The notes: a model not told the origin generated them from the sequence alone. Positions 53,309-56,594 are shown, counted from the first letter of the stretch. The stretch: 64,000 bases of DNA from an uncultured Clostridia bacterium (GCA_944386195.1 CALXAD010000003.1:2653-66652), one strand, 5' to 3'. A program made the numbers and translations.

Positions 53309-55141
53309 ATGGCAGGTTTTAATAATATTTATATAACAACAGAAGGAGCAAAACTAGCAGCTAAAACAATAGAAGGAAAAATACTAAAATTTTCACATGC
53401 TCAATTAGGAAGTGGAACATTATCAGATACAAGTGTAACGGCTATAAAGAAAAGAACGGCATTAGTAAAAAAAGTAATGGAATGTGATATTCTAAAGGCA
53501 GAAAAAACAGGGGATACACAAGCGACAGTTAGTTTCTTATTAAAGAATACAGAAGCTAGTAGCCCTTTCTATTTTAGAGAGTTAGGTCTTTTTGCAATAG
53601 ATCCTGATACACAAAAAGAGGTATTATATGCTTATGCAAACGCAGGAAATAATGCAGAATATATTAATAACTCTGTAAGTGAGATTGTTGAAAAATACAT
53701 TAATGTAGTTATAACAATCGATAATGCAGATAATGTAAGTGTTACATTAGATGGAACTCAAGTCTATGTTACAGAAGCTGAAATGGATAAAGCAATAAAA
53801 GAAGCAATTACTAAAAAAGGAAATTTATATGGAATAAAAAGAAAAGTAAATGATAATACATCATCTGCTTGGGAGAGGATTGAAGATTCAGTTGGATTGG
53901 TAGCAAAGGCTACAAAAAACGGAGAAGCAGTTCAAAATGATTTTGATAGTAGATATCCTTGGTCAGAGATAATTTCATATAATTATGATGTAACTAATAA
54001 AAAAATAAATGCATATTATGGTGATCCAACTTTCAAGTTTGATGGAAGTAATGGAGAAGTCTTAACAAGAATTCCAGAATTTTATTGGAAAAGAGAAATT
54101 GTAGATGGTTATGAATATATTTATATAGCAGATTATGCAATAGCAGGATTTAATAAAGCAGAACAATTTTCTATTGGAAGATATGATGCATGTATTGATG
54201 AAGATGGAAAATTACACAGCTTTAGTGGATATAGCCCTTCTACAAATAAAAACATTACTCAACATAGAGCAGCAGCAAAATTATTAAGTGATGAATTTTG
54301 TATGCTTGATTATAGGTATTTCTTATTACAAATGTTATATTTAGTAGAATATGCTAACTTTAATTCTCAATCACAATTGGGAAATGGAATTGTGTCAATG
54401 AGATATACATCAAATGATAAAGCTCTTATAGCAGGAGAAAATACAAATACAATAGTAATAGCAACAAATAGCTATTTTGTAGTAGGTCAACAAATTGCAA
54501 TAGGAACGACAGTAGATGGGGTTAATATTTGTAAAGATAGAACTATTACAGAAATTGAAGAATATAGCAAAGATACAACTGAAGGAACAGCTATAACTTT
54601 TGATGGAGATCCAGTAACAATTGCAGTAGGAAATATAATTCATTCATGTGGACAAAAAGAAGGTGGTTGCGATAGTTTAGGAATGAAATCAGGATGTCTT
54701 GCAAACGATAGTAAGCATGCAGTAATTTATAGAGGAATAGAAAATATATTTGGAAATGTATATAATTGGGTAGATGGTATAAATATTCAAGATTACCAAG
54801 CATATATTTGTAGAGATCCAGAACAATATATTTCTGATAAATTCGAGGCACCTTATGAAAAAATAGGATATCTAAATTCAGAGGAAGAAAATCAATATAT
54901 TAAAAAATTAGGATATGACGAAAAAAATCCAGATATAGCTTTACCAATAGAAGTAGGTGGTGGTGTAGGTTCAACAACAGGAATGTGTGATAGCTACCAT
55001 GCATCTACTGGAAACCGTGTCGCTCTTGTGGGTGGTTACTTCAGCATTGGTTCGAATGCTGGTCTTTGGCTTTGGAATTGCAACAACACCTCTTCTTCTT
55101 CGTACTTGAACAGCGGTGCTCGCCTTCTTAAAAACCAGTAA
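53309..55141 (+). CDS. Tail fibre / receptor-binding protein with C-terminal C-type-lectin-like variable region; target gene of the DGR
   Basis: The last about 37 codons (55019-55129) are about 91% identical to the downstream template repeat, and every mismatch lies at a template adenine. Confidence 0.85.
   Translation: MAGFNNIYITTEGAKLAAKTIEGKILKFSHAQLGSGTLSDTSVTAIKKRTALVKKVMECDILKAEKTGDTQATVSFLLKNTEASSPFYFRELGLFAIDPDTQKEVLYAYANAGNNAEYINNSVSEIVEKYINVVITIDNADNVSVTLDGTQVYVTEAEMDKAIKEAITKKGNLYGIKRKVNDNTSSAWERIEDSVGLVAKATKNGEAVQNDFDSRYPWSEIISYNYDVTNKKINAYYGDPTFKFDGSNGEVLTRIPEFYWKREIVDGYEYIYIADYAIAGFNKAEQFSIGRYDACIDEDGKLHSFSGYSPSTNKNITQHRAAAKLLSDEFCMLDYRYFLLQMLYLVEYANFNSQSQLGNGIVSMRYTSNDKALIAGENTNTIVIATNSYFVVGQQIAIGTTVDGVNICKDRTITEIEEYSKDTTEGTAITFDGDPVTIAVGNIIHSCGQKEGGCDSLGMKSGCLANDSKHAVIYRGIENIFGNVYNWVDGINIQDYQAYICRDPEQYISDKFEAPYEKIGYLNSEEENQYIKKLGYDEKNPDIALPIEVGGGVGSTTGMCDSYHASTGNRVALVGGYFSIGSNAGLWLWNCNNTSSSSYLNSGARLLKNQ
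55019..55129 (+). repeat. DGR variable region (VR)
   Basis: 111-bp alignment to TR 55284-55394; 10 mismatches, all at TR A positions (for example TR aac/aat codons versus VR tac/agc/att). Confidence 0.85.
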
Positions 55142-55154
55142 GAAGCGGGGGATA

Positions 55155-55171
55155 GGGGGCGGCCAGCCCCC
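55155..55171 (+). promoter_or_regulatory. GC-rich hairpin GGGGGC-ggcca-GCCCCC downstream of the VR (DGR target-recognition hairpin candidate)
   Basis: 6-bp all-GC stem within a less than 30% GC genome, located 14 nt after the fibre stop codon. Confidence 0.55.
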
Positions 55172-55283
55172 TTTATTAATAACTATATTATAGAATACTT
55201 ATTTTTGAATAGAAAATATTGTATAATTTTGTCGAAAAAAGGGACTTGATGTGTGGTGAGTGCCCTATTGGTGTTTTAGTTTT

Positions 55284-55394
55284 GTCGCTCATGTGGGTGG
55301 TAACTTCAACAATGGTACGAATGCTGGTCTTTGGCATTGGAATTGCAACAACACCTCTACTTCTTCGAACTTGAACAACGGTGCTCGCCTACTT
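55284..55394 (+). repeat. DGR template region (TR)
   Basis: Non-coding copy of the VR carrying 26 adenines, 10 of which correspond to the variable positions; lies upstream of the RT. Confidence 0.85.
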
Positions 55395-55529
55395 ATTTGT
55401 AATTTTATAATTTTTATTACACATCATTTTCCATAGCACTTGCTAAAAATATTGTCGCAACTGGACTGGTTTAGTAGTTCCTCTTGAACGAAAAATCGGT
55501 AGACAAAATAAGAAAAAAGGATTGTTGAA

Positions 55530-56594
55530 ATGAAAAGAACAGGAAATATATATTCAAAAATATGTGATAAAAACAATATATTAAAAGCAATAAATAAAGC
55601 CTCATTAAGAAAAAAAGATAGAGCAAATGTAAAAAAAATAATAGACAATCCAGTATTCTATACAGAATATTTATATAAAATGTTAAAAAATAAAGAATAT
55701 AAACCTAATCCATATACAGAAGTAAAAATCCAAGATGGTGTTAGAAAAAAAGAAAGAATAATATATAAACCACAATTTTTCCCAGACCAAGTAATACATT
55801 GGGCATTAATGTTACAATTAGAACCGATTTTATTAAGAGGAATGTATTATTATTGTTGTGGTTCAGTAAAGAATAGAGGAATACATCATGGAGCGAAATA
55901 TATAAAAAAAATACTTGTGAGGGATAGGAAAAATACAAAATATTGTTTAAAATTAGATGTTAAAAAATTTTATCCTTCTATAAATAAGGAAATATTAAAA
56001 CATAAATTTTTAAAAATAATAAAATGTAGAAATACATTAGATTTAATTGATTTAATAATAGATAGTTCAAAAGAAGGATTACCTATTGGAAATTATACTT
56101 CACAATGGTTTGCAAATTTTTATTTACAAGATTTAGATCATTATATTAAAGAAAATTTAAAAATACCTTATTATATAAGGTATATGGATGATATGGTTTT
56201 ATTTCACAGGAATAAAAAAGAACTTCATAAAGCAAAAATAAAAATTGAAGAATTTTTAAAAAAGGAAGATTTAAAACTAAAAGAAAATTGGCAATTATTT
56301 AAAACTGACAGTAGACCAATTGATTTTTTAGGGTATAAATTTTATAGAGGATATACAACAATTAGAAAAAGCAATTGTTTAAGAATTAGAAGGAGAGTAA
56401 AGAAGATAATAAAAAAACCAGCTTTATTTCCAAAAGATGCAGCAGCTATTTTAAGTTATACAGGATGGCTAAAGCATTCTAATTCTTATAATTTTAATAA
56501 AAAATATATAGAACCATATATTAGTTTAGATAAATGTAAGGAGGTAGTAAGAAATGCGAGAAGAAAACAATGTAAAACCAGAAAAAAAATTTGA
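55530..56594 (+). CDS. DGR-type reverse transcriptase
   Basis: RT motifs LDVKKFYPSI; DGR-specific GLPIGNYTSQWFANFYL (IGxxxSQ); YMDD; RBS AAGGA. Confidence 0.9.
   Translation: MKRTGNIYSKICDKNNILKAINKASLRKKDRANVKKIIDNPVFYTEYLYKMLKNKEYKPNPYTEVKIQDGVRKKERIIYKPQFFPDQVIHWALMLQLEPILLRGMYYYCCGSVKNRGIHHGAKYIKKILVRDRKNTKYCLKLDVKKFYPSINKEILKHKFLKIIKCRNTLDLIDLIIDSSKEGLPIGNYTSQWFANFYLQDLDHYIKENLKIPYYIRYMDDMVLFHRNKKELHKAKIKIEEFLKKEDLKLKENWQLFKTDSRPIDFLGYKFYRGYTTIRKSNCLRIRRRVKKIIKKPALFPKDAAAILSYTGWLKHSNSYNFNKKYIEPYISLDKCKEVVRNARRKQCKTRKKI

Follow-up and report, generated by a model that had tools for sequence, protein, structure and literature searches.

A compact Avd-less diversity-generating retroelement at a tail-fibre gene in a prophage of an uncultured gut Firmicute

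Introduction

Does the duplicated 3' end of a tail-fibre gene, lying beside a reverse transcriptase (RT) gene in a prophage of an uncultured Clostridia bacterium, belong to a working diversity-generating retroelement (DGR), and of what parts is such an element made here? This question was raised by the initial annotation of a 64,000-nt stretch of DNA (GCA_944386195.1, CALXAD010000003.1:2653-66652), in which a DGR was proposed at 53309-56594; the whole stretch is called the window, and positions are counted from its first letter. Phage tail-fibre DGRs are a textbook case and are common on gut prophages, and the existence of this one was therefore unsurprising. The computational analysis described here led to the reading that the locus is very probably a functional DGR, carried by a contractile-tailed prophage of about 48 kb in an uncultured low-GC gut Firmicute.

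Results

Template and variable repeats

A single long direct repeat was found at the locus, with two copies of 113 nt that were 91% identical and offset by 265 nt. These were the variable repeat (VR), within the fibre gene, and the template repeat (TR), between that gene and the RT gene (Table 1). Their ungapped alignment contained ten mismatches, and the TR base was an adenine in all ten, with T as the VR base in eight and G in two. As 27 of the 113 nt of the TR are A, the hypergeometric probability that ten out of ten mismatches would hit A was 1.4e-7. The initial annotation had claimed this adenine-only pattern and illustrated it with codon changes (AAC>TAC/AGC, AAT>ATT, CAT>CTT, ACT>TCT); the pattern was recovered on realignment, the codon examples were all correct and the repeat coordinates agreed within 1 nt. 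Its attribution of the ten substitutions to mutagenesis stood insofar as all of them lay at TR adenines, but not for the pair T55126/A55391, which seems to be a fixed marker of the initiation of mutagenic homing (IMH) type, as described below.

No further TR copy was found in the 64-kb window, even with each TR adenine masked as N; the window held one VR and one TR. The GC content of the two repeats was 46-48%, versus 26% for the window.

The VR ends 11 nt short of the end of the 610-codon open reading frame (ORF) of the fibre and encodes residues 571-607 of the 610-aa protein; its 25 mutable positions, which all face a TR adenine, lie within 55026-55113 and correspond to 15 variable residues within 573-602. 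The TR is intergenic, and the 354-codon RT ORF begins 135 nt further on. When read in the VR frame, 26 of the 27 TR adenines occupied codon positions 1 or 2, the sole third-position adenine being 55391 (codon CTA). The adenine-bearing codons were ten AAY, two CAT, and ACG, ACC and ACT, from which no stop codon can be reached and which give a theoretical repertoire of 5.9e14 peptides. Since the adenines fall almost only at codon positions 1 and 2, these 15 residues can diversify and stop codons never arise. The same VR-TR-RT layout, with A-only mismatches, was observed in about 50 related loci.

Natural variation of the VR

The exact RT protein was found on 14 contigs in public assemblies, and the fibre gene was present on four of them (L001-L004). 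L003 was identical to the window across 9065 nt, VR included. L001 showed 5 differences in about 8950 non-VR bases and 13 in the 113 VR bases, while the VRs of L002 and L004 differed from that of the window at 16 and 18 positions, respectively. All 47 of the VR differences in L001, L002 and L004 were located at TR-A positions and none at non-A positions, and the TR was identical among all four contigs. VR variation at template adenines, which the initial annotation had anticipated, was hence present among independent assemblies of the same prophage. The bases at TR-A sites in the four VR alleles were A (49), T (34), G (23) and C (2). Brt, the RT of Bordetella phage BPP-1, is reported to prefer dATP misincorporation, and the VR spectrum of T>G>>C agrees with this preference.

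Furthermore, the window fibre was compared with 25 homologues at least 91% identical to it, and these 26 alleles had 26 different C-termini. In the alignment of their 610 residues the mean entropy was 2.10 bits at the 15 predicted residues versus 0.044 elsewhere, and the 15 positions of highest entropy were exactly the 15 residues with a mutable A in the TR codon. As judged from these assemblies, the VR pattern appears to be the mark of mutagenic retrohoming that is still going on or took place very recently.

A side observation concerned the wider set of fibre homologues (P0122-P0240), which were nearly all singletons in 90%-identity clusters, each being present on no more than two contigs. 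Such a pattern would fit a hypervariable VR that swells the count of distinct sequences in protein databases.

The reverse transcriptase

The RT matched PHROG 1423 (Reverse transcriptase) with E=2e-110. Its best PDB match was the 8ub7 series (E=4.2e-32, 115 bits), the sequence of which is 100% identical to brt of BPP-1 by tblastn; the runners-up were the RT of a group II intron (E=5.8e-11, 45 bits) and RTs of the retron type (about 1e-8), and Brt outscored the best group II RT by 70 bits. The motifs IGNYTSQ and YMDD named in the initial annotation were both present, and its grouping of the protein with DGR RTs, not with group II or retron RTs, was borne out by this ranking. IGNYTSQ aligned to Brt I181-Q187, an Arg to R74, and D and YMDD to D138 and D215/D216. 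The DGR RT signature is [I/V/L]GxxxSQ, versus QGxxxSP in other RT classes, and R74 and I181 of Brt have been shown to promote adenine mutagenesis. The protein also stayed far under the cut-off of every NCBIfam model for group II, retron or defence (DRT) RTs.

The RT clade is common, with 3460 homologues at E<=1e-10. The relatives came from the guts of humans and animals, in metagenome-assembled genomes that bear the labels of uncultured Clostridia, Bacilli or Mollicutes. A blastn search against 50,697 phage genomes returned only a 275-nt RT match of 68% identity, no close relative being deposited among them.

The target fibre and its C-terminal domain

Residues 9-155 of the fibre matched Pfam Phage_tail_fib, a tail-collar fibre domain (E=1.8e-7), and the protein matched PHROG tail protein and tail fiber families with E down to 1e-69. 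Its gene lies directly 3' of the Baseplate_J and Mu gp48-like genes.

Pfam matched no family in the C-terminal half of the fibre; no lectin or formylglycine-generating-enzyme (FGE) family was detected there by NCBIfam either, nor by Pfam across 22 diverse homologues, and a single-sequence PDB search with this part gave no match. A profile of 22 diverse C-termini from related loci found only four PDB matches at E<10, namely TaqVP (5vf4, E=2.8e-5) and three Mtd variants, each aligned across its VR. The first full-length AlphaFold model, made with 20 close homologues, was unusable in its C-terminal half (predicted local distance difference test, pLDDT, below 50). Residues 291-610 were modelled with a 123-sequence alignment, reaching a pLDDT of 89.9 and a predicted template-modelling score (pTM) of 0.86, and a Foldseek search with this model gave TaqVP chains as the only significant PDB matches (E=4e-7). 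Predicted structure and profile search together assign the domain to the C-type-lectin (CLec)/FGE-type fold of DGR variable proteins, confirming the CLec-like C-terminus first proposed.

Two additional observations were made on the fibre and its neighbour. A confidently predicted beta domain is inserted in the lectin-type fold at residues ~365-447 (54402-54649, + strand); it is missing from shorter related DGR targets, such as those of 377-379 aa in loci L010 and L020. The gp48-like gene (52417-53304, +) contains, at 52934-53293, direct-repeat families spaced 93, 186 and 279 nt, which encode units of about 31 aa (IQKxFIxLxxNxDxxKE...) in the C-terminal half of this baseplate/fibre-adaptor protein.

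Table 1. Features of the retroelement and associated genes in the window.
Feature	Coordinates	Strand	Basis
Target gene, tail fibre, 610 aa	53309..55141	+	ORF, Pfam Phage_tail_fib, PHROG
Predicted C-type-lectin/FGE-type fold domain, residues 291-610	54179..55138	+	profile search, AlphaFold, Foldseek
Variable repeat (VR)	55018..55130	+	repeat search, alignment, population variation
IMH-like VR 3' boundary	55114..55153	+	no variable site past 55113; fixed T55126
GC-rich inverted repeat, 7-bp stem, 5-nt loop GGCCA	55154..55172	+	sequence, conservation
TATAAT box, putative -10 of TR-RT promoter	55222..55227	+	conservation
H1 upstream strand GGGACUUGAUGUGUG	55241..55255	+	pairs with 55418-55432
H2 upstream segment, pairs with TR 3' end	55255..55276	+	minimum-free-energy fold, comparative pairing
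Template repeat (TR), non-coding, invariant	55283..55395	+	repeat search, alignment, 4 independent contigs
H1 downstream strand UACACAUCAUUUUCC, directly 5' of RT-18	55418..55432	+	covariation
Rfam RT-18 (RF03021) motif, TR-RT spacer	55434..55514	+	cmscan
DGR reverse transcriptase, 354 aa	55530..56594	+	Pfam RVT_1, PDB match, PHROG 1423
ORF85, 85 aa, overlaps RT stop by 41 nt	56554..56811	+	homologue comparison
Msl-like gene, stand-alone MutS domain I, 132 aa	59479..59877	-	Pfam MutS_I
Cro/C1-type helix-turn-helix (HTH) gene, overlaps and co-transcribed with Msl	59874..60107	-	Pfam HTH_26, E=2.5e-11

The 3' boundary of the VR and the GC hairpin

The last mutable site of the VR, 55113, is followed by an A-free GC block, GGTGCTCGCC (55115-55124). 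Two nucleotides further on, T55126 of the VR stands opposite A55391 of the TR. This pair was constant in 4/4 population VRs, and most members of the clade had CTTCTTA in the VR and CTACTTA in the TR. Since all VR alleles have it and it holds clade-wide, the pair is better explained, by analogy with known boundaries, as an IMH/IMH*-type marker than as a product of mutagenesis. The VR/TR homology stops 4 nt past T55126, and the VR-specific sequence that follows includes the stop codon (55139-55141). By analogy with BPP-1 (Wu 2018, PMC5758913; Guo 2011), the boundary segment would act as an IMH.

The hairpin AGGGGGC-ggcca-GCCCCCT starts 23 nt past the end of the VR/TR homology. Its 6-bp form, GGGGGC-ggcca-GCCCCC (55155-55171), had been noticed 14 nt past the fibre stop TAA, and both position and sequence were borne out; an A-T closing pair extends it to 7 bp. 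Its stability as DNA was -8.5 kcal/mol. A hairpin was present at the equivalent place in 55 related loci. Its stem read GGGGGC/GCCCCC or, through compensatory changes, GGGGGT/ACCCCC and GAGGGC/GCCCTC, while GGGGGC/GCCTCC contained a G.T wobble; the loops were GGCCA, GGTCA or GACCA (GRYCA), and a T-run was mostly absent after the stem. More distant RT relatives carried CGGGGGAG...CTCCCCCG about 45 nt past the VR. In BPP-1, GC hairpins located 4-34 bp past the VR, with a 7-10 bp stem and a 4-nt GRNA loop of critical size, are needed for retrohoming, and such hairpins are general in phage DGRs (Guo 2011). By analogy with these, the hairpin of the window is a candidate target-recognition hairpin or cruciform, and a double role with the terminator of the fibre gene is possible. 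Additionally, a second G-run, GCGGGGG, lies ahead of the hairpin (55146-55160, +). Related loci have conserved this run (AAGCGGGGGTATGGGGGC), which could serve as another pairing partner for the C-run.

RNA elements from the TR to the RT gene

The region from the VR end to the RT start was aligned for 25 loci. Nearly all of them had a TATAAT box 13 nt upstream of an invariant GGGA block; this box was not called by a two-hexamer promoter scan, and from its conservation we infer a putative -10 element for a TR-RT transcript. Two invariant blocks, GGGAYTTGATGTGTG (55241-55255) and TACACATCATTTTCC (55418-55432), contain the two strands of a helix of 13 pairs, H1. In the 25 sequences 99.4% of the cells were paired, as compared with 31-44% in controls with a slid register, and five pairs showed compensatory double changes. 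H1 was also recovered by an unconstrained minimum-free-energy fold of 55235-55529. These results indicated a covarying long-range duplex that brackets the TR.

A second helix, H2, was seen in the minimum-free-energy fold, its core being formed by GGUGAGUGCC (55255-55264) and the GC block at the 3' end of the TR, GGUGCUCGCC (55380-55389). H2-like duplexes were found in 21/21 loci, with a mean of -19.5 kcal/mol (z=-2.5), and their sequences varied among loci with the pairing kept. When partners were swapped, the own TR end gave -15.4 versus -11.0 kcal/mol for foreign ones, and 0/5000 permutations were as good, in a test that ignores kinship among the loci and so overstates the significance.

The TR-RT spacer matched the Rfam RT-18 motif over its full length (model positions 1-84; 69.2 bits, E=1e-11), well over the gathering score of 41.3, and the motif was present at the equivalent place in 9/9 related loci tested (55-66 bits). 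It comprises a tetraloop hairpin P1 (55434-55445), an invariant AAAA (55446-55449), a long hairpin P2 and the Shine-Dalgarno region of the RT gene; P1 and P2 covary. Of the RT motifs, only RT-10, the BPP-1 spacer, had been tied to a DGR, and a DGR role of the others was speculated (Weinberg et al. 2017, PMC5737381); a literature search for RT-18 combined with DGR found no paper. Its assignment to the TR-RT spacer of demonstrably A-mutagenic cassettes goes beyond routine.

In the cPRT Stop, which was surveyed in Avd-containing DGRs only, a duplex of about 13 bp between upstream and downstream TR flanks is accompanied by a short stem-loop and A-minor adenosines (Handa et al., 10.1101/2023.10.23.563531). 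The same composition was observed here, with the 13-pair H1 followed by the P1 hairpin and then by the invariant AAAA, and by analogy this assembly resembles the prototype cPRT Stop. A pairing between CUACU in the TR and UAGUAG, which is invariant in RT-18, was considered as the priming duplex and rejected, since UAGUAG was unaltered in loci whose TR ends read CTTCTTA, TTTTTA or TTATTA and there was thus no covariation. H2 is also unlikely to be a primer:template duplex, to judge from its topology, because priming from a site 5' to the template within one RNA would make the RT copy a closed loop towards its own branch point.

Absence of Avd and the ORF following the RT gene

The 152-nt gap between VR and TR contained no ORF, and no Avd-like Pfam match was obtained among the 32 small prophage ORFs of the 64-kb window. 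This compact gap without genes was common to the whole RT clade. Avd is found in about 74% of DGRs and is not universal, the Avd-less ones making up some 26-29% of those catalogued (Wu 2018, PMC5758913); as these form a recognised class, the absence of Avd is compatible with membership of the DGRs.

Homologues of ORF85, the ORF that overlaps the RT stop, were found 3' of the RT gene in 60/85 loci. Most were acidic proteins of 140-177 aa, and their C-terminal halves matched Pfam Phage_tail_APC (E 1e-13 to 2e-23) and PHROG tail fiber assembly. ORF85 aligned to the N-terminal half only of these homologues; it had itself no Pfam or PHROG match and lacked the C-terminal APC domain. Homology thus suggests that ORF85 is a tail-fibre assembly chaperone truncated to its N-terminal half, a phage gene and not a part of the retroelement machinery, and the APC domains of the homologues imply that the TR-RT unit lies between the fibre gene and its chaperone. 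A role of ORF85 as Avd substitute or DGR accessory was rejected, given its acidity (pI 4.6) and the nature of its full-length homologues. The CH1 accessory class of Wu et al. (PMC5758913) consists of proteins of 160-169 aa with a pI of 4.7, present in Avd-less DGRs only. The longer ORF85 homologues fit this description, the comparison being by description only, and the CH1 class may simply be fibre chaperones.

A MutS-like gene and its HTH partner

At its right end the prophage also encodes, on the other strand, a stand-alone MutS domain I (Pfam MutS_I, E=7e-15, 55.6 bits against a cut-off of 20.6), referred to here as MutS-like (Msl). The HTH gene accompanied it in nearly all loci, and the pair was found 2-3.5 kb downstream of the RT gene in about 37 genome loci. 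Msl alone was used to fetch 61 viral loci, and those with 5 kb or more of flank, 42 in all, were counted: an RT was present in 41/42 and the remaining one had an A-only TR/VR pair, so that 42/42 were DGR-linked. Loci fetched with the endolysin were RT+Msl+ in 4 cases, RT+Msl- in 2, RT-Msl+ in 0 and RT-Msl- in 22, a weak control, as the RT-less phages were only loosely related.

The motif GIFYN was invariant in 72 Msl sequences. It presumably aligns with the mismatch-binding GDFYE of MutS, sharing its Phe but having Asn in place of Glu. An accessory class of small MutS-like proteins has been described for DGRs (Wu 2018, PMC5758913; 10.1101/2024.11.15.621889), and in Bacteroides host MutS cuts DGR mutagenesis 5-10-fold (10.1101/2024.11.15.621889). 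The window Msl is a candidate DGR accessory, assigned through Pfam MutS_I and the DGR linkage, not through direct comparison with published Msl proteins. By analogy, it is reasonable to suppose that it may shield the cDNA:VR heteroduplex from host mismatch repair.

A second DGR lineage with the same Msl/HTH and lysis module was also observed (L087-L089, L115-L118, L120, L122, L125, L130-L136, L138, L140, L141). Its RT has 386 aa and is 24-27% identical to that of the window; its TR and VR, of 95 nt and about 770 nt apart, show A-only mismatches, and the tail of its target matches DUF6273. A helical ORF of 170 aa between VR and TR, for which no Pfam match was found, could be a divergent Avd.

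Prophage context

An exact 15-bp direct repeat, TGTCAACGATTTGTC, was located at 12231-12245 and 60690-60704, and the integrase gene (12300-13529, - strand) adjoins its left copy. These repeats are probably attL and attR, bounding a prophage of about 48.5 kb. The genes between them include those for an S24 repressor, terminase, SPP1-type portal, tail sheath, tape measure, baseplate, the fibre with its DGR, holin and an amidase/CW_7 endolysin, and the host folD gene follows. As its gene content suggests, the prophage is complete and contractile-tailed. Genes for tRNA-Met and tRNA-Tyr lie at 63341-63519 (+), about 2.6 kb past the right end of the prophage and not beside the att repeat.

Discussion

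In the mechanism proposed here, a TR-containing transcript would be copied by the 354-aa RT, with misincorporation opposite template adenines, and the mutagenised cDNA would replace the VR at the 3' end of the fibre gene. The transcript is predicted to begin at about 55234, and cDNA synthesis to start at C55379-G55380 or directly 3' of it and to end just past 55255 on its 3' side. The GC block and the VR-specific sequence past 55113 would set the 3' limit of this replacement, which the conserved GC hairpin, 23 nt downstream, would assist. The 15 residues of the predicted CLec fold could take about 6e14 combinations, none with a stop, and this variation presumably lets the phage change its receptor specificity. 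Instead of relying on Avd, the cassette RNA would provide the covarying duplex that brackets the TR, followed by the tetraloop hairpin and the A-run with which RT-18 starts, and H2 would tie the 3' end of the TR to the upstream strand. The MutS-domain-I protein of the prophage would probably protect the mismatched intermediate from host mismatch repair. A further proposal is put forward only tentatively, as a possibility that we rate below even chances: the clade may be a self-sufficient minimal Avd-free DGR working through a rearranged RNA scaffold, in which the upstream strand takes part both in the Stop-like duplex and in the helix formed with the end of the TR on its 3' side (mirroring the prototype, which is centred on the downstream spacer strand, Sp), and the MutS-domain-I protein and its HTH partner may raise diversification by heteroduplex shielding.

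Several points weigh against a functional DGR of this kind. The element is known here from sequences alone, from which cDNA, transcript and retrohoming are deduced, and VR variation among assemblies dates activity to the recent past of the lineage, not to this exact copy. The element could be a fossil, once active but no longer diversifying in this copy; static assemblies are the only data, and the VR of L003 is identical to that of the window. This is very improbable in view of the intact RT ORF, with every catalytic motif present, and of the intact TR, RT-18 and both helices. Moreover, prophage copies that are 99.9% identical elsewhere bear wholly different VRs, and the 26 fibre proteins carry 26 VR alleles, which implies a turnover far faster than the background divergence. 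An origin of the RT from a group II intron, a retron or a defence system, with the repeat as an ordinary duplication or gene-conversion tract, can be regarded as refuted, its remaining probability being negligible. The NCBIfam similarity to group II, Drt3a and retron models on which it could draw is weak and sub-threshold (scores against cut-offs of 86/300, 73/200 and 64/235) and would be expected for any RT; against it stand the lead of Brt in the PDB ranking, the motif IGxxxSQ in place of QGxxxSP, the population VRs and the A-only mismatches, which recur in dozens of related loci.

Other points concern parts of the element. Neither Avd nor any other known essential cofactor was found in the 64-kb window, and the RNA pairing analysis identified no priming site. 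It is rather unlikely that the cassette is not truly Avd-independent and draws in trans on an Avd-like or other cofactor, encoded by the host genome or by a prophage gene that escaped recognition. The prototype cannot do without Avd, Avd proteins are so poorly conserved that a divergent one could escape Pfam, and the search covered only this 64-kb window; on the other side, the VR-TR gap is too small for a gene here and is without genes throughout the RT clade, none of the 32 small ORFs resembled Avd, and genomes with Avd-less DGRs had no trans-encoded avd (Wu et al., PMC5758913). The hairpin, for its part, was no more stable than shuffled sequences (z=-1.0), its 5-nt GRYCA loop is not the critical 4-nt GRNA of BPP-1, and it was flagged by a terminator scan as well (7-bp stem, then TTATTAAT); as its stability is not significant by itself, the case for the hairpin rests on conservation. 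It might then be merely the intrinsic terminator of the fibre gene, with no part in retrohoming, and the G.U-compatible stem GGGGGC/GCCUCC, which pairs as RNA and is mismatched in a DNA cruciform, speaks for this together with the terminator call. We consider it unlikely, although less so than a cofactor in trans, since most related loci have no T-run past the stem, the conserved 5-nt loop is needless for a terminator, and GC hairpins 4-34 bp past the VR occur in DGRs generally and were shown by experiment to be required (Guo 2011). The preferred reading is thus still a functional Avd-less DGR with a candidate target-recognition hairpin.

The significance of the locus is practical. The cassette is very compact, with about 1.45 kb between the hairpin past the VR and the stop of the RT gene and with one protein encoded, and its clade is large and evidently very active, its homologues numbering hundreds and its A-only TR/VR pairs dozens. 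The absence of Avd in roughly a quarter of DGRs has been unexplained since 2018, and the covarying helices H1 and H2 offer mutable targets for studying the priming and the arrest of reverse transcription in DGRs of this type. The strict co-occurrence of Msl and DGR provides a testable link to the recently shown antagonism of DGR mutagenesis by host MutS, and a single-protein DGR would be attractive for directed-evolution tools. Beyond routine are the compact Avd-less cassette with its evident natural activity, RT-18 in a DGR spacer, the helices H1 and H2, the reinterpretation of the ORF that follows the RT gene as a fibre chaperone and the strict Msl-DGR linkage; RT-18, the duplex around the TR and the Msl-like gene had gone unnoticed in the initial annotation.

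As regards known systems, the prototype DGR of BPP-1 (mtd-VR, avd, TR, brt) likewise has a tail-fibre target with a C-terminal CLec-fold VR. The two elements share the order VR, TR, RT, the A-specific mutagenesis, a GC-rich boundary with a GC hairpin past the VR, a homologous RT (E=4e-32) with the same signature residues, and a structured TR-RT RNA in which a duplex between upstream and downstream TR flanks is followed by a stem-loop and adenosines. They differ in that the window has the 152-nt VR-TR gap in the place of avd, RT-18 instead of RT-10 as spacer RNA, a 5-nt GRYCA instead of a 4-nt GRNA hairpin loop, and an Msl-like gene. In BPP-1 the adjacent helices share the downstream Sp strand, which bears the priming nucleotide, whereas the strand common to both helices is the upstream one here. 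With respect to the Rfam RT-18 family, the window matches well over the gathering score and beside an RT gene, and the long-range duplex of its 5' neighbour falls outside the Rfam model.

The core of the element (target with VR, TR and RT, with no accessory gene in the cassette) is that of the Avd-less Architecture A DGRs, which represent about 29% of those catalogued and for which an Avd-independent mechanism was proposed (Wu, Zimmerly et al. 2018, PMC5758913). In that same set MSL occurred only in DGRs containing avd, whereas the Msl of the window lies 2.9 kb off on the other strand and belongs to an Avd-less element; in the published MSL/Msl sets in general the gene accompanies avd, of which the window has none. 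The Bacteroides Msl DGRs (10.1101/2024.11.15.621889) resemble the window in coming from the gut microbiome and in encoding a small homologue of the MutS mismatch-recognition domain. They encode Avd and diversify pilus tip adhesins, whereas the DGR of the window is Avd-less and phage-borne, and its Msl is paired with an HTH gene, past the lysis cassette and on the opposite strand. Finally, TaqVP of Thermus aquaticus (PDB 5vf4), to which the predicted fold of the target is most similar, is not a phage fibre, and the window fibre adds to this fold a tail-collar N-terminal domain and an inserted beta domain.

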